Made by a program: the position numbers and the translations under genes. From positions 1 through 15,809 of the forward strand of contig JBJCIZ010000458.1 in NCBI GenBank assembly GCA_051294375.1: a stretch of 15,809 bases of DNA, read 5' to 3'. How positions within the stretch are numbered: the first letter of the stretch is position 1; every line of letters begins with the position of its first letter. Below the pieces are notes generated by a model, which had not been told where the DNA came from, made no database searches, and saw nothing but the letters and a program-made list of their open reading frames with translations. This document shows positions 1,324 to 13,263 of this stretch, in pieces. Source of the stretch: Paraspadella gotoi. Its lineage: Eukaryota > Animalia > Chaetognatha.

Positions 1324-4089
1324 ATGGAAAGTTTTTTCGATGAAGATAAGAATGTTAGTGAACGTGGTATTCGAGTTTTTGTTTATCAATTAAATAAAGA
1401 GTTGATCGAATTTATTAATAAGTATAAAAGAGCCCAAGAAGGTCCGTCTATTGAAACTGTTAATGTTGTTGAAGGTGCCCGTGATCACGTTCGTAGATTG
1501 CATACTGTTTTAACTAAGTTTATTAAAAGGCACCCTGAGTTTGAATCTAAAAAGGTTTTTAGTATTCTAAGTAAGACCGAGAGTCAATCTGTGCCGTATA
1601 TTTTAAATAAATATCCGCCGTTACCCGTTCCGTCGCGATCCGTCCGTTCGAATATGGACAATAATTTTGAACAGTCAGGGGGAAGGGATGAAGGGAATGA
1701 AACTGAAAGTGATCTTATTGTCGTAGAAGGTCCCGTTGTTTTGTCTTCCCAGTTAGAACCCAATCCTGTTGCACCATCGGCCCAGGCCGATGATATTTCG
1801 CCCGATCTCGATCCTCTTCCTCCTCCTCCTCGTATTGATTTAACACGAGAACGATCTTCTGCTGTCGAAGCAGCAGAAAACGCGCCAGTTCGGAGTCGGT
1901 CCGTGTTATCGACGCTTGCTAACGTTTCTGCGCATTTATCCGCTCTGGGAAGAAGTCGACATTCTTCGCCAAATGAGACGGTAGTGTCTGAAGTATCACC
2001 TGATGCTCGTCCGGAAAATCTATCTCAAAGGTTAGTAGACAAAGAACGAACTCGTAGAATTCGACGTTTAGAAATTGAACGAAAAAAGGCTCATTTAGAA
2101 AAGTTGATTAGAGAAATCGAAATTGCTGAAATTGAAGAAGACGCAGAAAACGAAATGACTTTGAATGAAAGGCAATGTAAAGGAAATGAAACTAATTTGA
2201 ATGCTTCGACCAGATCAAGGAATGGCGGCGCCGCGCGGAGAGCTTACAATGAATCCGTCTACGATCGAGTTTGCGGAGTAGGAACGACTTCGACGACAAA
2301 CGTGATGACCACGGTGAGTTGCGAAAAGGGTGGGTCTGGCAGTTTATTAAAGGGATCGTCACCGTTATCGAAGATCAGTCCAAAAGGTTTGACTGTTAAT
2401 ACGAATGATGCTAATTCGACGCCCGCACTGGTTCCATCAGTCGTCCCGATTTCGAGTCGTTCACGTTTAGAAACTGTGCCTAAGATCGTTGCTCGTAGTT
2501 CACCACAAACTGAACAGATTTTGTCTGGGGGGGGAGAGATTGAGATACCAAATGAATCCGTCCCGGCTCCAGTCATTCGACAACCGCCGAGAATGTCAAG
2601 GAGTGTTCCTAATGTGTTGAATCGTATCTCTGCACAAAATCAAAATGTTGTAGGACAGGGAAAGGTTGAAAACATGATTCCCGCGAATTTTTTGGGCAAT
2701 CCATTTAGTGCCTACCCAGCATTTAATCCATATTTTGCCTACCCACAGTGGTCGACTCCTTCACCAATGCATTTCCCAAACCAAGCACAATCGCCACAGA
2801 CTTCTGTTGCAAAGGTTAGCGTCTCACCCAATACACCGTCGGTGGCGCCAGCTGTTTCAAATCGTAATTCTCCGGTCCATAATGCAAATTCCACTCGCGA
2901 GAGGCCGTGTCCAAATTCTATTGTGGGAGAAACTTTGGGTGATTTTGGTGAGGATAGGGACAAGTTGACACAACTCTGCACTATCCAGATCCAGCAGCAA
3001 GCATTAAGCATGATGAGGCAACGTAGGCCCAAATTAAAATTTAATGGGCGTGACAAAAGGGTCGATTTTGAATCTCAACTGAACTTGTTTAATTCTCTGG
3101 TCAATATTGCTGGAGTGACTGACCAAATGATGATGAATGAATGTAAGGAATATTTTGATGGAGATGCCGCTATAATCGTGTCCCAACATGAAGCCTCTAG
3201 CGATTTCACTGATGCTCTAAAGAAAGTTAGGAAGGCTTTAAAGATAGAATTTGGTAGAAAAACGTATAATGCCCATCAAATGTTGGAAGAGTTGCTAAAG
3301 GGTCCTAAGATTTCTGATAAAGATTTTACTGGGGCTAGAACGTTTGTTCTTGAGATGGAAAAGTTTCATGTGAGGGCTAAGGAGACTGGTAGGGAGTTGA
3401 CTTTTTCAACTCAGGAGACATATAAGGAAATTATCTCTAAGAAGTTGCCTTTTCTGGCTGCTTGGGTGGCAAGAAGAATGGTTGATAAGGAATGGGAAAA
3501 GATGAAAAGTGATGATGATGATGGATTTTTTGACCTTGAAATGAAATTCGAAGATTTTATTGATTTTGTGAAAAAATCTGTGAAAATCAATGAGAGAAAG
3601 TCAGCCTTGTTGGGAAGTCGAGATGCTGTAACGACAAGTGCACCAATTTCTACCACACAATCCAAACCGACGAACACCTTTCAACGAAATCCAATTCGTT
3701 TTGCCGCAACTGCTGTTTCTTCTAACCCACGCACCCAACCCGTCTTGTCAACTCGTACATCTGGAGCTGCAAAAGTAACGAATATTGCTGCAGCATCTTC
3801 TTTTCCAAATCCAAATTCCAACCCAAACAACCATGCACCGCGAAATGCATCAACCTCGAAATGCCGATTTTGTGAGCAAAATCATCACACTGGCAATTGT
3901 AGTGATTATTTGGCGCTTGATCATGAAGCTAAGGTGACATGGTTAAGAGAAAAGGCTTTGTGTTTTTTGTGCTTTGGTCATGGACATGTTGCTAAGAATT
4001 GTCTTCGGATGTTGGGTTGTTCAAAATGTAGTGGGAGGCATCATGTATCACTTCATCAGGTGACTACCACCCAGGTTGAATCATCCTGA
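1324..4089 (+). CDS. gag: Gag, 921 aa: long S/P-rich N-terminal half, BEL capsid-like region (from KFNG..., about 3037), three C-terminal Cys/His knuckles
   Basis: Uninterrupted ORF. CRFCEQNHHTGNC (from 3862), CFLCFGHGHVAKNC (from 3961) and CSKCSGRHHVSLH (4018-4056) give the Cx2Cx3Hx4C / Cx2Cx4Hx4C / Cx2Cx3Hx4H triplet characteristic of BEL/Pao Gag. Confidence 0.93.
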   Translation: MESFFDEDKNVSERGIRVFVYQLNKELIEFINKYKRAQEGPSIETVNVVEGARDHVRRLHTVLTKFIKRHPEFESKKVFSILSKTESQSVPYILNKYPPLPVPSRSVRSNMDNNFEQSGGRDEGNETESDLIVVEGPVVLSSQLEPNPVAPSAQADDISPDLDPLPPPPRIDLTRERSSAVEAAENAPVRSRSVLSTLANVSAHLSALGRSRHSSPNETVVSEVSPDARPENLSQRLVDKERTRRIRRLEIERKKAHLEKLIREIEIAEIEEDAENEMTLNERQCKGNETNLNASTRSRNGGAARRAYNESVYDRVCGVGTTSTTNVMTTVSCEKGGSGSLLKGSSPLSKISPKGLTVNTNDANSTPALVPSVVPISSRSRLETVPKIVARSSPQTEQILSGGGEIEIPNESVPAPVIRQPPRMSRSVPNVLNRISAQNQNVVGQGKVENMIPANFLGNPFSAYPAFNPYFAYPQWSTPSPMHFPNQAQSPQTSVAKVSVSPNTPSVAPAVSNRNSPVHNANSTRERPCPNSIVGETLGDFGEDRDKLTQLCTIQIQQQALSMMRQRRPKLKFNGRDKRVDFESQLNLFNSLVNIAGVTDQMMMNECKEYFDGDAAIIVSQHEASSDFTDALKKVRKALKIEFGRKTYNAHQMLEELLKGPKISDKDFTGARTFVLEMEKFHVRAKETGRELTFSTQETYKEIISKKLPFLAAWVARRMVDKEWEKMKSDDDDGFFDLEMKFEDFIDFVKKSVKINERKSALLGSRDAVTTSAPISTTQSKPTNTFQRNPIRFAATAVSSNPRTQPVLSTRTSGAAKVTNIAAASSFPNPNSNPNNHAPRNASTSKCRFCEQNHHTGNCSDYLALDHEAKVTWLREKALCFLCFGHGHVAKNCLRMLGCSKCSGRHHVSLHQVTTTQVESS

Positions 4090-4178
4090 CTCGCGGCAGC
4101 GTATGCGACGACGGGGGCGTTTCGACCAATTGTGCCATTGGTTGTTTCCAACGGTCTGAGACGCGTCGTCACATACGC
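4087..4178 (+). promoter_or_regulatory. Putative stop-codon readthrough signal: UGA-C, 9-nt spacer, extended stem-loop
   Basis: TGA at 4087-4089 is followed by C. Pairings read by eye: 4099-4105 GCGTATG/CATACGC 4172-4178; 4107-4112 GACGAC/GTCGTC 4165-4170; 4117-4123 GCGTTTC/GAGACGC 4158-4164 (one G-U); 4124-4127 GACC/GGTC 4153-4156. Confidence 0.75.
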
Positions 4179-7100
4179 AATGATGGATAGCGGCGCTACA
4201 AGATCCGCTGTATCATCTAGAATAGTCTGTGAATTAGGTTTAGAGCCATATACATTATTTACAAATCTCTCTACATATAATACTGTTTCCCAAGCTTGGC
4301 GAGACTTCGTTGATTTAAAAATCTCAACTCTTGATGAATCTTTTTCTAAAGAAGTGAATAAAGTGCTTGTGGGTGATATATTGACCACAGAAAGTGATAA
4401 GCCATGTCGTAATGAGGATATTTCTGATTATGAGTATATGAATGGAGTTATTTTTGATGAGTTAGATCATGAGGATGTTGAGTTAATTCTTGATGCTCGT
4501 TTAGCCTCAACATGGGTAGGGGGCGAAACCAGAGTTGGTCCTGAAGGGTATCCCATAGCTCTTAAGACAAGATTTGGTTGGACGTTAGTGGGAGCCAGTG
4601 AAAATGAGACTAAGGATCAGATTAGTTGTTGTTCTAGTATCTCAGAATTTGATAAGCTTGAGTTTATGATTGCCTCTATGTTCCGTCATGATTTTATCCT
4701 CAAGGGAGACGAACGTTATCCCTCAGAAGTTCAACATGCTTCTTGTCAGGATTCGTATGCAATTGAGCAGTTGGAACAACAGACATATTTTAATGAGGAG
4801 ACCGGCCATTACGTGGCTCCGTCACCTTGGAAGAAGGGCAGGAGTAAAACTGCTGAGTTGTTTGAACCACTGTATAAAGACGTGGCAGAAAATGCAAAAA
4901 GCAGAGCTAAGAAAACAGCCAATAAGATGAGAAAGGATCCAGTTCTTAAGGAAGGTGTTTTTAAGACTATGAAAGAGACTGTTGAGATGGGTCATGCTAG
5001 AAAGGTAGTTGAAGATCATCCACCTAAAGGAATCCCTGAATATTTTGCTCCTGTCCATGTAGTGACGCGACCGGACAAACCCGGAAAATTTCGGATTTGT
5101 CAGGATGCGGCTACTAAGGTGAAAGGCTCAAGTCTTAATGATTACTTAATCCCTGGTCCAGATAATTTGACGCCTTTGATAGGAATTTTATTAAAATTTA
5201 GAAGGAAAAGAGTGACGTTGGCAGGGGATATAAAATTATTTTTTCATCAAATAGAGTTACATCCTAATGACGTGGCTGCCTTTAGGTATTATTGGTATAG
5301 TGATGAAACCATGAAGGTTTTAGAAAAACATGAGCCCTTGGTTCACGTATTTGGTGGGGCAGGAAGCCCAGGGGTTGCTAATTTTATCCTTCAATACCAT
5401 GCAAAAGCAAATAAAGATGTGTTCTCACCTGATGTTTTAATGGCTTTATATTTAAAATTTTATGTTGATGATTTTATTGATTCGCTTGATGGAGTTAAGC
5501 AGGCGCGAAAAATGAGAATAGATATTATTGAAGCCTTAAAAAAGGGAGGTTTTGATATTGGGAAGTGGAAAAGTTCTGACGAACGTGCTTTACTTGATTT
5601 TTCAGTTGACGGAGAAGACGATCCTTGCCACGACTCTATCGCCACCCTGATCGACTCCGCTTCTCCAGATAACGCCGAGGATCTCACGGATGATCTTGAG
5701 AGAGTAATCGACAATGCCCTCCCTGATAATCCCACCCTTGATGAGCAAGATAACAAGGTATTGGGAGTTGGATATAATTTTCGTCGTGATATGTTTTTTG
5801 TAAGAATTTCTAAAAAATATGAAAAGGAGGCAAAGACTCGTCGTGATATCTTAAGTTTAGTCTCTTCCATGTTTGACCCCATGGGTCTTATTTCGCCTTT
5901 TATTTTAAAGGGGCGATGCTTTTTTCAAAAGGCGACTGATTTAAAACTAGAATGGGATGAGATGTTGCCTGAGGATTTGGAAAAGGATTTTAATTTTTGG
6001 CGTGTAAGCATTTTTAAACTTAAAAAATTGTTAATACCAAGATGGACCGCCGTGTTAGGTTTAAATGATTTTATTGCAAAACTGATAGTTTTTTGTGATG
6101 CTTCATCTGAGGGTTACGGCATGGCCGCGTATATTAAAAAAGAAAGTAAATGTGGAAAATTAAATCACGTTTGTCTATTATTTGCTAAGGCTCATGTTGT
6201 CCCTCTTAAGATGCAAAGAATGATTATCCCTGACCAGTTAGATCACGGAGATTCAATGCCCCGCCTTGAGCTGAATGCGGCAAGACTTGGTGCTCAGATG
6301 CGTGATATGATAGAGAGAGAATCTGGGGAAGTGTTTGAAACAGTTTTCATGATGACTGATTCTTTGACAGTATTGAGATGGATTCATGATTGGTGTAAAC
6401 GTTTCAAAACCTTTGAAAACTTTAGATTAAAAACAATTCGTTTACTTTCCAGGCCTACTGAATGGCGACATGTTCCGGGTGAGGAGAATCCGGCGGATCT
6501 TGCGAGCAGAGGCATCGACGCCGACGACGAGAAGAGTTGGTCTCGTTTTCATAAAGGACCCAGCTGGCTGAAGCAAGCTGAATCCGAGTGGCCTATGACT
6601 TCCGATCCAAACAAAGTCAAAAAGAAAAAAGGCAAAGTAGATCTTAAGGCCATTGACGAAGACAGCGCCTTCTCTCCGTCTGAGTTGGTTCTCTTAGGCG
6701 CTACTCGTGAGCATCCCGTAATGCCGGACTCTAAATTATCTACAGGTTGGGCTTTAAAAGTTACAAATAAACTGGAAAATTGGATAATGAAAGTTCGCCG
6801 AATTGCTTACTTTATAAATGCGGTTTTACGTTTTGTAAAATTTTTGGGAAAAAAGAAAAAAGCTGATGATAGTTTGTTTAAAAAAATTCGTTTGACGGCG
6901 CCCGAATTTTTAAATGCTGAAAAAATATTAATTCGGTCGGTCCAAAGATCACATTTTGAAAAAGAGATATTTTCTTTAATTAAACTAGGAGTTTCTTCCG
7001 CCGACGCTCACAAAGAGCTCCGCACACAAAGGTCTAAACTTGTTTCTTTGAGTCCCTTTGTCGATGAGATGGGTATTTTAAGGACTGGTGGTCGTTTAGT

Positions 7101-8283
7101 TAATTCTAGCTGTCTTAATTTTGATTCTAAATTTCCTATCATCCTTCCTAAAGACGACGAAGTGGTTAAATCTTTAATACGTTATGAACATGAAAAATTG
7201 TATCATGCTGGCCCAGCGGCGACTTACCATTCCGTACGTCAACGATTTACTATTTTAGGCGGACGAAGTGCGATTGATATTGTTGTCAGACGGTGTGTTA
7301 AATGTCAAAAATTATTTAAAAATAATTTAAGCCAGAAGATGGCTAATCTCCCGCCGGAGAGAGTAAATCTTTCGGTTCCATTTAAAAATTCTGGAATAGA
7401 TTGTTTTGGACCTTTTCAAATTCGTCTTGCTGGGAGGGGTCTGAACAAAAAATTTGTCTTGTTAATATGTTGTCTCGCTACACGTGCAGTAGTTTTTGAA
7501 CCATTAAAGGACATGTCGGCTCCGTCAGTCCTTAACGCATTAATTCGAGTAAAAAATTCTTTTCCAGGCATGGAATCGCTTTTCTCTGACAACGGCACTA
7601 ATTTCAAAGGTGCTGCAAACGATTTAAAGTCCCAACTTCAGGCGATTTGTAATGACGAAAAATTAAGCGAGGGAATCGCGGTGAGAGGAATCTCTTGGAA
7701 TTTCGGACCTCCGTATACGCCTCACGCAGGTGGGATTTGGGAACGCCTTGTACGTTCGGCAAAGAAACATTTAAAAGCAGTCATTCCAGATAATCTTGAT
7801 TATGATACCTTTAATACTATTTTAAGTGAAGTTGCCGGGATTCTTAACAGACGGCCTATTACGTTTGAGGCATCAGACCCTTTGGAACCTATTGTTTTAT
7901 CTCCACTTAATTTACTTTATCCTTATTTATATGCTCCTAGTTCTCTTACACTTTTACCACATGCTCCATCTGAAGGAGACATAATGAAGTCTACTTGGCG
8001 AAAAGTTCGTGAAGTAGCTGACGAGTTTTGGTTCCGATGGCGTGATGAATATTTGCCTTCCCTTCAGGCGCGAACGAAGTGGTTCCAATCGTCACCGGAT
8101 CTTCCAATCGGCGAAGTCGTTCTCATTGTTGACCCCACCGCGCCGAGAGACAGATGGCGCACAGGAATCGTTGTGGAAACGTCTGGAGAGGGTCCCCACT
8201 CGCGAGAGGCAATTGTTAAATTGCCTGACGGTCGAAAAATTCGTCGTCATTACCGTTCGCTTGTTTCGCTAGAACTGAATTAA
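4090..8283 (+). CDS. pol: Pol polyprotein (aspartic protease, reverse transcriptase, RNase H, integrase); probably translated as a Gag-Pol readthrough fusion 1324-8283 (2319 aa)
   Basis: The frame is open from immediately after the gag TGA. Motifs: protease DSG at 4186; RT LAGDIKLFF and YVDD at 5461; RNase H CDAS (D at 6097), PRLEL, TDS, NPAD; integrase H(7189)-H(7204)-C(7294)xxC and D(7399)-D(7588)-E(7741). The ORF-track GTG start at 4132 is unlikely to be real. Confidence 0.96.
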   Translation, partial: LAAAYATTGAFRPIVPLVVSNGLRRVVTYAMMDSGATRSAVSSRIVCELGLEPYTLFTNLSTYNTVSQAWRDFVDLKISTLDESFSKEVNKVLVGDILTTESDKPCRNEDISDYEYMNGVIFDELDHEDVELILDARLASTWVGGETRVGPEGYPIALKTRFGWTLVGASENETKDQISCCSSISEFDKLEFMIASMFRHDFILKGDERYPSEVQHASCQDSYAIEQLEQQTYFNEETGHYVAPSPWKKGRSKTAELFEPLYKDVAENAKSRAKKTANKMRKDPVLKEGVFKTMKETVEMGHARKVVEDHPPKGIPEYFAPVHVVTRPDKPGKFRICQDAATKVKGSSLNDYLIPGPDNLTPLIGILLKFRRKRVTLAGDIKLFFHQIELHPNDVAAFRYYWYSDETMKVLEKHEPLVHVFGGAGSPGVANFILQYHAKANKDVFSPDVLMALYLKFYVDDFIDSLDGVKQARKMRIDIIEALKKGGFDIGKWKSSDERALLDFSVDGEDDPCHDSIATLIDSASPDNAEDLTDDLERVIDNALPDNPTLDEQDNKVLGVGYNFRRDMFFVRISKKYEKEAKTRRDILSLVSSMFDPMGLISPFILKGRCFFQKATDLKLEWDEMLPEDLEKDFNFWRVSIFKLKKLLIPRWTAVLGLNDFIAKLIVFCDASSEGYGMAAYIKKESKCGKLNHVCLLFAKAHVVPLKMQRMIIPDQLDHGDSMPRLELNAARLGAQMRDMIERESGEVFETVFMMTDSLTVLRWIHDWCKRFKTFENFRLKTIRLLSRPTEWRHVPGEENPADLASRGIDADDEKSWSRFHKGPSWLKQAESEWPMTSDPNKVKKKKGKVDLKAIDEDSAFSPSELVLLGATREHPVMPDSKLSTGWALKVTNKLENWIMKVRRIAYFINAVLRFVKFLGKKKKADDSLFKKIRLTAPEFLNAEKILIRSVQRSHFEKEIFSLIKLGVSSADAHKELRTQRSKLVSLSPFVDEMGILRTGGRLVNSSCLNFDSKFPIILPKDDEVVKSLIRYEHEKLYHAGPAATYHSVRQRFTILGGRSAIDIVVRRCVKCQKLFKNNLSQKMANLPPERVNLSVPFKNSGIDCFGPFQIRLAGRGLNKKFVLLICCLATRAVVFEPLKDMSAPSVLNALIRVKNSFPGMESLFSDNGTNFKGAANDLKSQLQAICNDEKLSEGIAVRGISWNFGPPYTPHAGGIWERLVRSAKKHLKAVIPDNLDYDTFNTILSEVAGILNRRPITFEASDPLEPIVLSPLNLLYPYLYAPSSLTLLPHAPSEGDIMKSTWRKVREVADEFWFRWRDEYLPSLQARTKWFQSSPDLPIGEVVLIVDPTAPRDRWRTGIVVETSGEGPHSREAIVKLPDGRKIRRHYRSLVSLELN

Positions 8284-8709
8284 TTGAAAGTTTGGAAATG
8301 ACAACCAAACTTAGTTTGATAGAAACTTTCTATATTTGAAAGTTATTAAGAAACCAAATGGTTATTTAAATTGATTTTTTCTCTGAGTTATTCTGAGTTA
8401 AAAAATTAGTTTGCTATTTATTTTTCATTGAATTTACCTGTCCTTACTAAAATCGCCGTTCCGCTTTCATTTATATAGACAGATTTTAATTGAAACGATA
8501 ATAACTTCTCATTGAGAATACTTTGTTTGATCAACAAAGTTAGTTGAATTTGAAAGCCTATGTTGAAGCTAGTTGGATTGAATTTTTTTTATATGAATTT
8601 TTTTTTTAGTTTCAAATTTTTATTTTTTACTGCCGACGCACATTAATATTTATTTGTGGCACTTCGTCCTTGGTTATTCGTCGTTACGTTCTGCCGATCG
8701 ATCATTAAA

Positions 8710-8955
8710 ATGAGCCTTTCTCGTGAATTCGTTGAGAAGTTCTTTGCTCCGTCGGAAAGGGAAAAAAGAGTTTTCGTCTTGGGACTCGCGACGCGTAAGA
8801 GAACACGGTCAACTCCAGAGCTCAATAGGATCATGGAAGATATCAATGAAACGGAAAACGTGATGGTGGGCGTACCTTTACATGACCTTTGGATGCTCGA
8901 GCGAAAATTGAAGATTCAGTCCCAAGAGTTGGAAATAACAAGACTAAAATCGTAA
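8710..8955 (+). CDS. Small accessory ORF A, 81 aa, unknown function (MSLSREFVEKFF...)
   Basis: More GC-rich island between AT-rich spacers. Start context aaaATG, and it is the first ATG after the T-tract/AG at 8608-8609. AATAAA follows at 9027 and 9068. Confidence 0.65.
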   Translation: MSLSREFVEKFFAPSEREKRVFVLGLATRKRTRSTPELNRIMEDINETENVMVGVPLHDLWMLERKLKIQSQELEITRLKS

Positions 8956-9173
8956 TGGTTTTCGTCGTCGTCGTGGATGTTTGTTTAGTGTTTATGTTTC
9001 ATTTGATTCAAGTTTACAAATAACCTAATAAACAAGAATGAAAAGTAAAAAATCTATAATCAGCAGAAATAAAATTGTGTTTGTTTTTTTTTTCGAAAAT
9101 AATAATATATATTTGTTGTTGAACTTAATCGTTTCAGTTTGATTGCTAACTATTTTTAACTATTTTTTAAATC

Positions 9174-9256
9174 CGTGATCCGCTGCTCCATCTCACCGTC
9201 CTTTCTCTCATTACGTGATCCGCTGCTCCATCTCACCGTTCTTTCTCTCATTACGT
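9174..9256. repeat. Tandem duplication of a 40-bp unit (2 copies, 39/40 identical)
   Basis: CGTGATCCGCTGCTCCATCTCACCGT(C/T)CTTTCTCTCATTA at 9174-9213 and 9214-9253, followed by CGT. Confidence 0.97.
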
Positions 9257-9332
9257 TATACGCTGCACCGTTTGCAGTCCACTGCGCTGTTTCGCGATTC
9301 CCCGTTTCGGTACGCGATCAGTTTCATTGAAG

Positions 9333-9605
9333 ATGGCGGAACCCAAGAACAGCGGGCTGCATCGTTATCTGGTTTCTTTGGCGGTTCCAGATCACGCCAA
9401 ACAAAGGTTTCATGAGTTATACTCGCGGGTCATTTTGGCTAAGGAAAAAGAACTCTTTGAGATGATGGAGAGGATGGGAATTTCAAGAACAAGCTCCGGT
9501 CAGGTGCCTGCTGAATTTGTGCCGCTGTTTAAAGACTGGGAGCGTAAAGCCGAAGACGAACTCAATCACGAGATCGCGGAGTTCCTTCGGGATTTGGAGA
9601 AATGA
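9333..9605 (+). CDS. Small accessory ORF B, 90 aa, charged helical protein of unknown function (MAEPKNSG...)
   Basis: Start context aagATGg, first ATG after TTTCAG at 9137. Protein-like amphipathic composition, bounded by AT-rich spacers. Confidence 0.7.
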   Translation: MAEPKNSGLHRYLVSLAVPDHAKQRFHELYSRVILAKEKELFEMMERMGISRTSSGQVPAEFVPLFKDWERKAEDELNHEIAEFLRDLEK

Positions 9606-9731
9606 AGACGACGGAACATTGCATCTATTTGAACTGTTTTTACTGAGTACTATTTTTTAGGTTTAGTTAAAAATCAGTTGACCTAACGTGCCGTGGAATG
9701 ATTTATTTTTTAGTTTTTCTGGTCATCAGTC

Positions 9732-9929
9732 ATGTCGTCCAGCAATTTTCAAGTTGATCGAGATGGTGCTGAGGACGATAATGCCTCCGCAGCATTTGCA
9801 GTTTATATTGAACCTGGTGAAACATTGTCTTCTCAAGAAATCTTACAGTTGTTTCAATCTATTAGAAGGGGGATTTTGATCGCGCGAGAGGCAGAAAGGC
9901 AGCGAATTATTGATCAAAATGAAGAATAG
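9732..9929 (+). CDS. Small accessory ORF C, 65 aa, acidic, unknown function
   Basis: First ATG after TTTTTTAG (AG 9712-9713). The ORF fills the island and AT-rich sequence resumes right after the stop. Confidence 0.6.
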   Translation: MSSSNFQVDRDGAEDDNASAAFAVYIEPGETLSSQEILQLFQSIRRGILIAREAERQRIIDQNEE

Positions 9930-10218
9930 CTCTTTATATAAAGATTTATTGGTGCCTTTTATTATTTAGTGGTTCTATTCATCCACGGATAATATTTGAG
10001 TAATTTGAAAAGAGACTACTTATTTATCTGGCCTACAGATTAAATTATTAGGTCAATTATCTCGAACTTTAATTTTGAAATATTTGATTTAAATTTCATG
10101 TTCTTAATGAGGAGTTAATTATTTGTATTGTTAAACATGTAATATTTATTTCTTAAGCCTCCGTTGCAATCTACTTTGTTATTCGTAGTCTTAGTTAAGT
10201 AATAGTAACGTGATTGCC

Positions 10219-10470
10219 ATGGCTCAACGATTTGAGAGATTTTTTGAGTCCCTGGGAGAGGACGAGGCTGTGAGGCAGCTATTTGAAGAACGACGACTTG
10301 AAGCAAATGCTCAAGTCATTTCCGGCTTGGTTTATTCGCGAGAGGTTGAGTTCCAAGAAAATTACCTGTTACCTGAGATAGGCCCTCATCACGTATCTAC
10401 AGATTCGGCTGACGAAGAATCGTTGTCAAGAGAGCCTACCAGCCCAAGGAGAATTCGACTTCACCAATAA
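10219..10470 (+). CDS. Small accessory ORF D, 83 aa, unknown function (MAQRFERFF...)
   Basis: Strong Kozak context gccATGg, first ATG after TTTATTTCTTAAG (AG 10156-10157). Flanks are AT-rich. Confidence 0.7.
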   Translation: MAQRFERFFESLGEDEAVRQLFEERRLEANAQVISGLVYSREVEFQENYLLPEIGPHHVSTDSADEESLSREPTSPRRIRLHQ

Positions 10471-10542
10471 TTCATTCAAAATTTTGCATTGAATTTAATT
10501 TAGTATTTAAATTATTATTTTTTTTTTTTTTTTTTTTACAGT

Positions 10543-10629
10543 ATGAGTTCTTTAACTCCTAGAAAGCTGAATTTGTACTACCCGATTTATCACTTATTTC
10601 AGTTTGTTTTGTTTTCGCGAAGTTCATAA
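10543..10629 (+). CDS. Possible micro-ORF E, 28 aa (MSSLTPRKLNLYYPIYHLFQFVLFSRSS), or remnant of a longer gene
   Basis: ATG lies 1 nt after a strong acceptor-like site (T20-ACAG, AG 10540-10541). Too short for further support. Confidence 0.3.
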   Translation: MSSLTPRKLNLYYPIYHLFQFVLFSRSS

Positions 10630-11017
10630 CCAGTCGCATAATGCTACGTTTACCACTCTGATATTAATTTACATTAATTAGGCATAATCGTCGTCGTTTT
10701 TTCATTGGTCTCCTGCTCGGTTTTCTTGCGCTTGCCTGATCCTCTTCCTCTTCTCTCAGCTCCTCCTCATCCTCTTTTTGATCCTCCTCCTCTCTTTTTG
10801 CTCCTCTTCCTTTTTAAAAAACCAAGTTTGGGCACAAGCTTGTCAAGCTTTCATACGTTCACTTTATTCGAATCGTTTTCGTTTCGGTTAATTGAAATAA
10901 TAAGTTGAATTTAATATATTTTTTTTATTCCTTTCCTCGACGTTATTTACATAATTGATATTTTATTAAGCAAAGATATTCCAAGTTTTTCCTGACGTAC
11001 CTCATCGGGCTTCAAAA

Positions 11018-11626
11018 ATGAATGACTCTGAACTTCTTGGCTGGGCTTTAAATCGAGCGAACGCAGCCGCTCTAAAAGTTCGTAACACCAAGGCCTTTCT
11101 GCAAGAAGCCACGAAGGCGATCGATGCGATTGACGAGAGCCTTACTGCTACTAGGAAAATACTCGACCTAGGCATCAAAAGAATTGAGACTCGTCAGGAG
11201 GTAAGCATTAAATTAGTTGAAATTATGGGTTATCTTGTTCATTTTTTATTTTTAACTAGTTTAAGGTTATTCATTAAGTTATTACTTTAGGTCATTCGTT
11301 CTGCTAATCAGTCGGGAAATTATCCTCCGTTAATTACGTTCGACGATGATGATACCCCTAAAGTTAAACGTGGTTCCGTCAAAATCATTCCGTTGATCAC
11401 CAAAACACGAAAACCCACAAGCAACTTGGTCATGCCGCGATCTCCTTCCGTGCCCAAGTTAGAGGAACCGTTTAATCCGATTCCGTCGCTTATGGGACAA
11501 AAGCCAAAAACTGGGAATCAACTCTCAGAGAGTAACCGTAACGAGTACGTCCGCTTGCCAAAGAAGGCAGTGAGGCAATATAACCATGCTCCAAGCTCTG
11601 CTGGCCAAATTAAGCCAGACGCTTAA
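11018..11626 (+). CDS. Spliced accessory gene F, 172 aa: join(11018..11200, 11291..11626); N-terminal helical domain plus P/K/S-rich tail
   Basis: Donor GAG|GTAAGC at 11201, AT-rich 90-nt intron, acceptor TTACTTTAG|G at 11290. Phase-0 splicing joins the two track ORFs (11018.. and 11393..11626) into one stop-free frame. Confidence 0.8.
11201..11290 (+). other. Spliceosomal GT-AG intron, 90 nt
   Basis: Near-consensus donor and acceptor, strongly T-rich body, and removal restores a continuous ORF. Confidence 0.8.
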
Positions 11627-11802
11627 TTCAGGACAAACATTAGACTTCGTTGTGTGTTTCGTTTAGTAATTAGATTGTACCATTGTCACTTTGATACATG
11701 ATATTATTTTTTGTTAGTGTTGTTTGCGATGTTTGCGTCTCACTACGTTTTTTTTTTTTTTTTTTCTTTTCTCAGTTTATATGTTAAAGTTGATATAAAC
11801 TA

Positions 11803-12144
11803 ATGACGGTCGTTGCCTCATTACGATTAGCACAGTGGAAAGTTGATCTCGCTACGGACATTGCGGTCAAAGCGGGAATCCAAATGAAGATCGCGCGGAC
11901 GGATGATGAGAAGATAATAGCAAAGATTGGGTTTGCAGAAGCTGTGAGAATGCTGCAGGAAGCTAGCACCATGGCAGCACAGTCCTTTAATGACGTTGCG
12001 CTTGAGGATGTTGACGAGGATGTCCAGCGTTTAGAGACAATACTGCGGGAAAGGATCGAAACGGGTCATCAAGCACTTGACGATGCGTTAGGCTGGTACG
12101 AGGAAATACCCGCACTGGAACCGCTCGACGATTACGAGTCGTAA
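11803..12144 (+). CDS. Small accessory ORF G, 113 aa, Ala-rich helical protein with acidic C-terminus; paralogue of ORF I
   Basis: Follows T18-CTTTTCTCAG (AG 11774-11775). Ungapped alignment to ORF I gives 15 identities in the first 55 aa. Confidence 0.8.
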   Translation: MTVVASLRLAQWKVDLATDIAVKAGIQMKIARTDDEKIIAKIGFAEAVRMLQEASTMAAQSFNDVALEDVDEDVQRLETILRERIETGHQALDDALGWYEEIPALEPLDDYES

Positions 12145-12365
12145 AACTTAATAGTTAACTTGTTTAATGCCCAGTTCGTCGCATATCTTGTTAAACATCA
12201 GTATGTAACATACCTTGCATTAATTTGTTTGCTTTGGTGGCCTATGTTTTCCATAATACTGAAAGTTGATAGCTATTAAATTTTTTTTTTATTAAGATTG
12301 ACGAAACGATTTGAAATATTTGAGAATTTAAATTATTTCGTTGTATTATCATTTGGTAAATAAAC

Positions 12366-12602
12366 ATGACTCATGAATATTTGGATCGCGCTATCAATAT
12401 TATTTTAAAGACTCAAGCGTCCCTGAGAACTAGCACTGACGAATGGACTCGTGCAGTTATTTTAGAAAAAGTTAACACTGCTCTTAAACTTTTAGAGACA
12501 GCACGAGATACAGCTAGTCATTGTCCCGAATGTCAAAAGCGCCCTCTTGTGCAGAATGTAACGTCTGATCCAGTCCTTGCCGAAAAGTTTTCTAATTTTT
12601 AA
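12366..12602 (+). CDS. Small accessory ORF H, 78 aa, helical protein with HCPEC motif; probable paralogue of ORF I
   Basis: Start context aacATG, first ATG after T10-ATTAAG (AG 12295-12296). LDRAINII matches ORF I VERAINSI. Confidence 0.72.
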   Translation: MTHEYLDRAINIILKTQASLRTSTDEWTRAVILEKVNTALKLLETARDTASHCPECQKRPLVQNVTSDPVLAEKFSNF

Positions 12603-12706
12603 ATTGTTTGTGAAAATTATTTGAATTTCTGTGAATGCTAGTGTACTGGAGATTTAAACAATTGGTTAAAAATTTAATATTTATTTTAAGGTTTTATAAA
12701 TTTATA

Positions 12707-13033
12707 ATGAATACCGCGACGGTCGTATCACTCGCTATTGAAAAGGTTGAGAGAGCAATCAATTCAATAATTGAAGCCAGGGGAAAGTTGCTTTCTGCCG
12801 TAACTCCTGAGGAGCAAGTCGCCACGACGACGGCAATTGACCGGGCGGAGAGATTGACTCACGAGGCATCAAAGATAATCATTTCCACGATGGCGACGAT
12901 CGATCCACACGACGAAAGACTGTTCGAGTTCTGGGCTTCTGGGAATCGTGTTGTCAAGAAGTTGAATCAGGAGAAAGCGTTATTAGACGAGATGGTCGAC
13001 TTAAACAAAGATCGCGACGATATGATTAATTAA
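12707..13033 (+). CDS. Small accessory ORF I, 108 aa, helical protein (MNTATVVSLAIEKVERAIN...)
   Basis: First ATG after TTTATTTTAAG (AG 12689-12690). This start puts it in exact register with ORFs F and G. The 24 upstream codons in the track are AT-rich spacer. Confidence 0.8.
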   Translation: MNTATVVSLAIEKVERAINSIIEARGKLLSAVTPEEQVATTTAIDRAERLTHEASKIIISTMATIDPHDERLFEFWASGNRVVKKLNQEKALLDEMVDLNKDRDDMIN

Positions 13034-13263
13034 AACTTTCTACTAATGTTTTATTTAAGAAAACTCTTTAATATTTTCTTGTTGATTGTTTAAATCTATT
13101 TTTATGAATTTACAATGTTAAATTAAAAATTGTTTAGGTCATTTTTTCATTAATAAGGCCTGAGGGGCAAACTGATAATAAAACAATTCTTGGCCGAAAC
13201 GCGCGGCGATTACTTTAATAATATTGCAGTGAACTTTTCTAAAGATTAACTCTGAGTGGCACC

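Follow-up and report, generated by a model that had tools for sequence, protein, structure and literature searches.

A conserved in-frame UGA with a putative readthrough signal at the gag-pol junction of a BEL/Pao clade

A BEL/Pao-type gag-pol unit from the chaetognath Paraspadella gotoi carries a single in-frame UGA between gag and pol, which, judged by comparison with its relatives, is a conserved feature of one BEL/Pao clade. Distant relatives (the loci L001, L002 and L004) keep the UGA, the next two bases and mostly a predicted hairpin, and therefore ribosomes likely read through this codon now and then. We consider the readthrough signal conserved and probably functional. Very probably it is best explained as programmed UGA readthrough of the alphavirus kind (type II) that one BEL/Pao lineage gained a single time. 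Most ribosomes would stop at the UGA and release Gag, whereas a presumed minority would insert an amino acid there and continue into Gag-Pol. The UGA-CU context would likely weaken termination, and the predicted stem, which starts 13 nt past the first letter of this codon, would likely sit at the mRNA entry of the ribosome and raise near-cognate decoding and readthrough, as in alphaviruses and coltiviruses. The outcome would be much Gag and little Gag-Pol.

The gag-pol unit in the window

The analysed stretch of 15,809 nt (hereafter the window) harbors the gag-pol unit on the + strand, in one shared frame of 6,960 nt, or 2,320 codons. Its parts are as follows.

1324 to 4089, + strand: gag open reading frame, 921 residues from the first ATG at 1324, ending at the junction TGA
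3862 to 4056, + strand: three Cys-His (zinc knuckle) boxes, at 3862-3900, 3961-4002 and 4018-4056
4087 to 4089, + strand: in-frame UGA, likely readthrough codon; the same codon in L001, L002 and L004
4090 to 4098, + strand: CU context (+4/+5) and 9-nt spacer; CT follows the stop in 4/4 clade sequences
4099 to 4178, + strand: predicted extended stem-loop, with the 5' arm at 4099-4127 and the 3' arm at 4153-4178; the conserved part is the basal 13 pairs
4090 to 8283, + strand: pol frame of 1,397 codons, with the protease Asp at 4186, the RT YVDD motif at 5461, a Pao peptidase A17/RNase H region, integrase H2C2 and DUF5641

Pfam search of the gag open reading frame gave no match and a search for Gag homologues found nothing; gag was identified by the three C-terminal Cys-His boxes and by its position ahead of the protease. 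For pol, the Pfam domains Peptidase_A17, DUF5641 and Integrase_H2C2 scored above the cut-offs, and the RT and aspartyl protease below them. The unit shares with BEL/Pao LTR retrotransposons in general the three Cys-His boxes at the end of Gag, the Pol order of protease, RT (YVDD), RNase H and integrase, and the presence of Pao peptidase A17 and DUF5641. In addition, its RT is related to BEL/Pao-type proteins, and PF05380 is present in 27/27 homologues.

No LTR pair was found inside the window. A segment at 698-790 reads TGTT...CAACA followed by G-TGGTG (CAACA-G-TGGTG near 764-774, seen by eye only), which resembles an LTR end plus primer-binding site, and a second LTR copy is absent from the window. 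A 63-nt T-rich stretch flanks gag-pol on both sides (596-652 and about 8560-8622, 78% alike), and the read depth of related contigs climbs near both ends of the unit. Behind pol, at 8700-13050 on the + strand, lie at least eight short tandem ATG open reading frames of 65-113 residues with AT-rich spacers between them. They are mutually unrelated; four that were tested had no significant Pfam match, and one had no Atlas match. These frames may belong to a large element as an array of accessory genes, its 3' LTR lying beyond the window, or they may be genes of the host. At 9163-9242, upstream of the open reading frame at 9333, a 40-nt unit occurs twice in tandem, the copies being 85% alike.

The junction stop in the window and its relatives

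An earlier sequence-only reading of this DNA had placed gag and pol in one frame with the TGA as the sole internal stop of 6,960 nt, and the codon count bore this out, giving one TGA, a terminal TAA (8281-8283) and no TAG. The TGA at 4087-4089 is followed by CTC GCG GCA. Its two other positional claims also held: the stop lies 10 codons past the last Cys-His box (4018-4056), and the first ATG beyond it, at 4180, sits two codons before the catalytic Asp of the protease at 4186. Contigs from the sequencing runs X1, X4, X6 and X8 span the TGA without a difference, and X7 has none listed there; X1, X4 and X6 are possible sources of the window DNA, and X7 and X8 are not so marked. An assembly error at the TGA was rejected, as contigs of five runs cover the stop without a listed difference.

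Scanning metagenomes with a generic BEL motif yielded at least 79 loci. Among the loci listed, five are close (L001-L004 and L007), three of which include junction DNA (L001, L002 and L004), making four elements together with the window; scans of viral_contigs and genome_contigs found no relative. The Pol proteins of the three share 40%, 35% and 31% identity, respectively, with that of the window. Their junctions read TGA-CTG in L001, TGA-CTC in L002 and TGA-CTA in L004, each in frame with the knuckles before it and the protease behind it, so that in-frame TGA-CT is present in 3/3 clade relatives with junction DNA among the loci listed, and in 4/4 elements with the window. In each relative the TGA is also the sole internal stop of the available frame (1,816, 893 and 1,445 codons in L001, L002 and L004). 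A sense codon in sister copies, which would have spoken against a recoding signal, was thus not encountered in these three relatives. The context proposed from the window, UGA-C, stands in that the C at +4 is kept together with the in-frame UGA, and is refined in that the conserved context is UGA-CU. Compared to the canonical hexamers UGA-CUA and UGA-CGG, the codon after the stop is CUC in the window and L002 and CUG in L001; only L004 has CUA, in the context UGA-CUAG.

Within the organism of the window itself, two further contigs in each of the four runs compared match the region 4030-4230 only at 4082-4130 (5 differences) and 4084-4155 (14 differences), both gapless, a comparison by match span and difference count in which the letters at the stop are not given. 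One of them, in X4, has a second, collinear match in the RT. In X9, which we guess to be an RNA run, the matches are the two sister pieces only, and this does not bear on expression.

These comparisons bear on whether the stop is simply an inactivating nonsense change, a fault of the assembly, or a codon read as Trp, Cys or Sec under a variant code of the host. Private changes do occur at BEL junctions: L026 has a TGA just before the protease (position 2462), whereas its near-identical twin L027 is open. Both lie outside the clade, the L026 stop was rejected as a clade-type junction, and the pair serves as a natural control for private stops. In the clade, by contrast, four elements with 31-40% identity share one stop and its context at the corresponding position of frames that are otherwise open. 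Moreover, the gag-pol frame of the window uses 28 TGG and only one TGA, which argues against a variant code, and no SECIS or other RNA family was matched in the window by Rfam at E up to 1. Such an origin of the stop is extremely improbable. A TGA-CT-like start of L047 (1-50) was dropped, since this contig end is adapter-like; we presume it to be sequencing-adapter sequence.

Counted from the stop, the catalytic Asp comes after 33 codons in the window, L001 and L002 and after 40 in L004, whereas the stretch between the last knuckle and the stop is of variable length (10, 16, 6 and 55 codons in the window, L001, L002 and L004). The signal is thus tied to what comes after the stop.

Alternatively, Pol might arise on its own, through internal initiation, reinitiation or a transcript of pol alone, in which case the stem would be an initiation or promoter element. 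CUG can act as a near-cognate start, and a CUN codon directly follows the stop in 4/4 sequences; CUG itself, however, occurs only in L001. Methionine codons past the stop lie at +31/32 in the window, +8 in L001 and +2 in L002, and are absent from the first 50 codons of L004. Because these positions differ, and L004 has none before its catalytic Asp, internal initiation is unlikely. In addition, pol keeps strictly to the frame of gag in 4/4 sequences, which separate initiation would not need, and in the window the first ATG comes only after the conserved R-P-I-V stretch of the protease. The Candida element Tca2 does have a junction promoter and an AUG within its hairpin, according to passages of PMC2194720, but for the clade studied here we regard separate synthesis of Pol as very unlikely. 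No heptamer shared as a slippery site was found among the four sequences. Taken together, neither AUG positions nor splice donors nor slippery sites are conserved, which speaks against internal initiation, splicing and frameshifting alike.

The predicted hairpin behind the stop

The sequence-only reading had described a C after the TGA and, after 9 nt, a 24-bp interrupted hairpin at 4099-4178. Fold prediction recovered it as 7+6+11 = 24 outer pairs plus a weak apical helix of four pairs, with an energy of -35.9 kcal/mol. The outer pairs have a pairing probability of 0.78-1.0 in contexts up to 500 nt, and the hairpin is the most stable of 1,391 sliding 80-nt windows across gag-pol. Its stability against chance varies with the trimming of the folded region: z is -3.4 for the exact hairpin (2/1000 shuffles), -2.5 for 4040-4240 and only -1.5 for 4087-4190 (18/200). 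When synonymous codons were resampled, z was -4.2 in the window (0/300 fold as well), -2.1 in L001, -4.0 in L002 and +0.1 in L004; the L001 stem is thus only moderately significant (5/300 resamplings).

The stems of L001 and L002 are long, start at +12/+13 and have ends matching those of the window. In the alignment of these two with the window, pairing holds for 89.7% of the basal helix of 13 pairs, six of which differ on both sides; one exchange, from G-C to A-U, falls at silent third codon positions of both arms. For all 24 pairs, 75% of the alignment cells pair, compared to 28-51% in slid controls, and 7/500 letter shuffles attain 75%, in a test of three sequences whose structure was derived from one of them, the window. 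RNAalifold predicted 30 pairs from the three-sequence alignment, 14 of which show two-sided change. In register, only 57.6% of the upper helix drawn from the window is paired. The compensatory changes that the sequence-only reading had proposed to look for were therefore found in two of the three relatives, L001 and L002, but not every relative has the stem. In L004 no stable one adjoins the stop, and the best one found, of 9 bp, is about 190 nt away. Altogether, a 3' stem 8-12 nt past the stop with compensatory changes is present in 3/4 sequences.

Among 129 windows spanning the first 480 codons of Pol, the strongest consensus fold (-21.0) is that of the junction, at only 48% DNA identity. 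Consensus folds can, however, stem from protein conservation, because a conserved RT motif folds nearly as strongly (-19.7). In this clade the RT motif DKPGKFRxCQD is encoded by self-complementary RNA that forms a shared predicted hairpin (window 5060-5115, L001 2078-2191, L002 1278-1391), with resampling z of -2.2, -0.7 and -1.1 in the three sequences covered, which is mostly explained by the amino acids.

A long duplex next to the stop might also guide removal of the stop from the RNA, either by A-to-I editing of UGA to a Trp codon or through a small intron. The consensus fold can reach the CU behind the stop, and 30 nt ahead of the stop the window has a CAG/GTGA that resembles a splice donor. 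Yet L001, L002 and L004 have no such donor upstream of the stop, and in the consensus fold the A of the stop is unpaired and preceded by a 5' G, which ADARs disfavour. Editing would moreover leave the conserved CU unexplained, and we consider removal at the RNA level highly improbable.

The variation among the four elements raises a narrower question, which falls within programmed UGA readthrough, namely that readthrough is real and comes from UGA-CU alone, the stem serving packaging, dimerisation or protection from decay. L004, with UGA-CUAG and no stem, fits this division of labor, and passages of PMC13517186 report that UGA-CUAG yields readthrough by itself and that deleting the downstream structure of PSIV left readthrough undiminished. 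Against it, the stem starts at +12/+13 in three elements, the same distance as that of tested stimulators. A role of the context alone is therefore possible but rather unlikely, and we favor readthrough in which the predicted stem takes part.

Distribution, known systems and meaning

A quick RT tree, built without bootstraps and with no named reference elements among its rows, grouped the window, L001, L002, L004 and P0001-P0016 in a clade of 20 rows with an SH-aLRT of 100. A full HMMER search and a second RT tree (FastTree), likewise free of named reference elements, gave a clade of 53 rows with a support of 89. Of the 49 predicted Pol proteins of this clade, none reaches past the junction towards Gag by more than two residues, and 35/49 start within 35 residues of it; such proteins show the break between gag and pol and not its kind, as a stop, a frameshift and a contig edge look alike, and the outgroup controls for contig edges only roughly. 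Outside the clade, Gag knuckles are in the same chain in 87/112 proteins. Another 15 of the 176 proteins, too short for the RT tree and carrying no knuckles, were left out of these counts. At the DNA level, 26 of the 29 other BEL/Pao loci that could be classified at the junction, among the loci listed, are fused, one has the private stop of L026 and two are out of frame (L037 and L073, the former probably a false motif match); the junction class was not assignable for 47/79 listed loci. Both counts show other BEL/Pao elements to be mostly fused, in agreement with the earlier claim of a single fused frame or a frameshift in most of them, and set the clade of the window apart from them. As the rows of the clade share ancestry, they represent one event and not 49. 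We think it somewhat probable that a large, deep-branching lineage, comprising 49 protein clusters with Pol identities as low as about 30%, gave up its fused gag-pol in a single switch and gained by convergence an alphavirus-style UGA-CU with an extended stem-loop, built from the first codons of the protease, and that a sub-branch swapped the stem for the stronger UGA-CUAG.

The closest likeness is to the alphaviruses VEEV and SINV and the coltivirus CTFV, which, in the passages of PMC3159437 and PMC13517186, share with the window the UGA, the C at +4, the 8-12-nt spacer and an extended, interrupted stem-loop, some 80-130 nt long, that begins at +12/+13. In SINV and VEEV, UGA-CUA/CGG with a stem 8-12 nt downstream raises readthrough 3- to 14-fold (passages of PMC3159437), and the structures of VEEV, CTFV and MoMLV begin at +12 (passages of PMC13517186). 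Compared to these viruses, the window holds a retrotransposon gag-pol junction known from its sequence, and the codon after the stop in its clade is CUN (CUC, CUG or CUA) and not CUA/CGG only.

Among retroelements, the fission-yeast Ty3/gypsy elements Tj1, Tcry1 and Tosmo1-3 share a clade-conserved in-frame TGA-CT between gag and pol (passages of bioRxiv 10.1101/2022.12.06.519325), and Tj1 transposition requires the stop (passages of PMC4600332). They belong to another superfamily and host, and have a conserved GAA before the stop that is absent here; a downstream stem is not named in those passages. Murine leukaemia virus likewise sets its Gag:Gag-Pol ratio by an in-frame stop, and a 3' structure lies 8-9 nt behind it (passages of PMC3159437 and PMC2194720); the virus uses UAG and a compact pseudoknot, in contrast to UGA-CU and a long predicted stem-loop in the window. 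Tca2 (pCal) of Candida albicans, a Ty1/copia element, shares gag-UGA-pol with a predicted 3' structure, yet this junction, similar in appearance, did not exceed background readthrough when assayed with a reporter in baker's yeast, according to passages of PMC2194720. Because Tca2 shows that such a layout, judged by its local sequence, can fail in a heterologous reporter, it calls for caution, and we infer rather than assert readthrough in the window.

Readthrough between gag and pol is already known in gammaretroviruses and in gypsy and copia elements. For the BEL/Pao superfamily, the BEL element Kamikaze of Bombyx mori is reportedly named with one stop between gag and pol in a survey of gag-pol recoding from 2003 and a review from 2004, and therefore a single-element precedent may exist. 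Titles and abstract openings retrieved by a literature search held no description of readthrough across a BEL/Pao clade or in BEL/Pao elements, nor did passages of PMC554778, PMC2678813, PMC8556966, PMC5009743 and PMC13517186.

If true, this would be the first clade-wide, covariation-supported readthrough signal in the BEL/Pao superfamily, and would add a recoding strategy to the least studied LTR superfamily. The elements would also offer a natural series, from a long stem with CUC or CUG to no stem with CUAG, for testing how the context of a stop and the structure 3' of it trade off, a question that recoding research has yet to settle. Moreover, the finding would be a warning for annotation, as gene callers split such elements into gag and a truncated pol and thereby score intact copies as dead.
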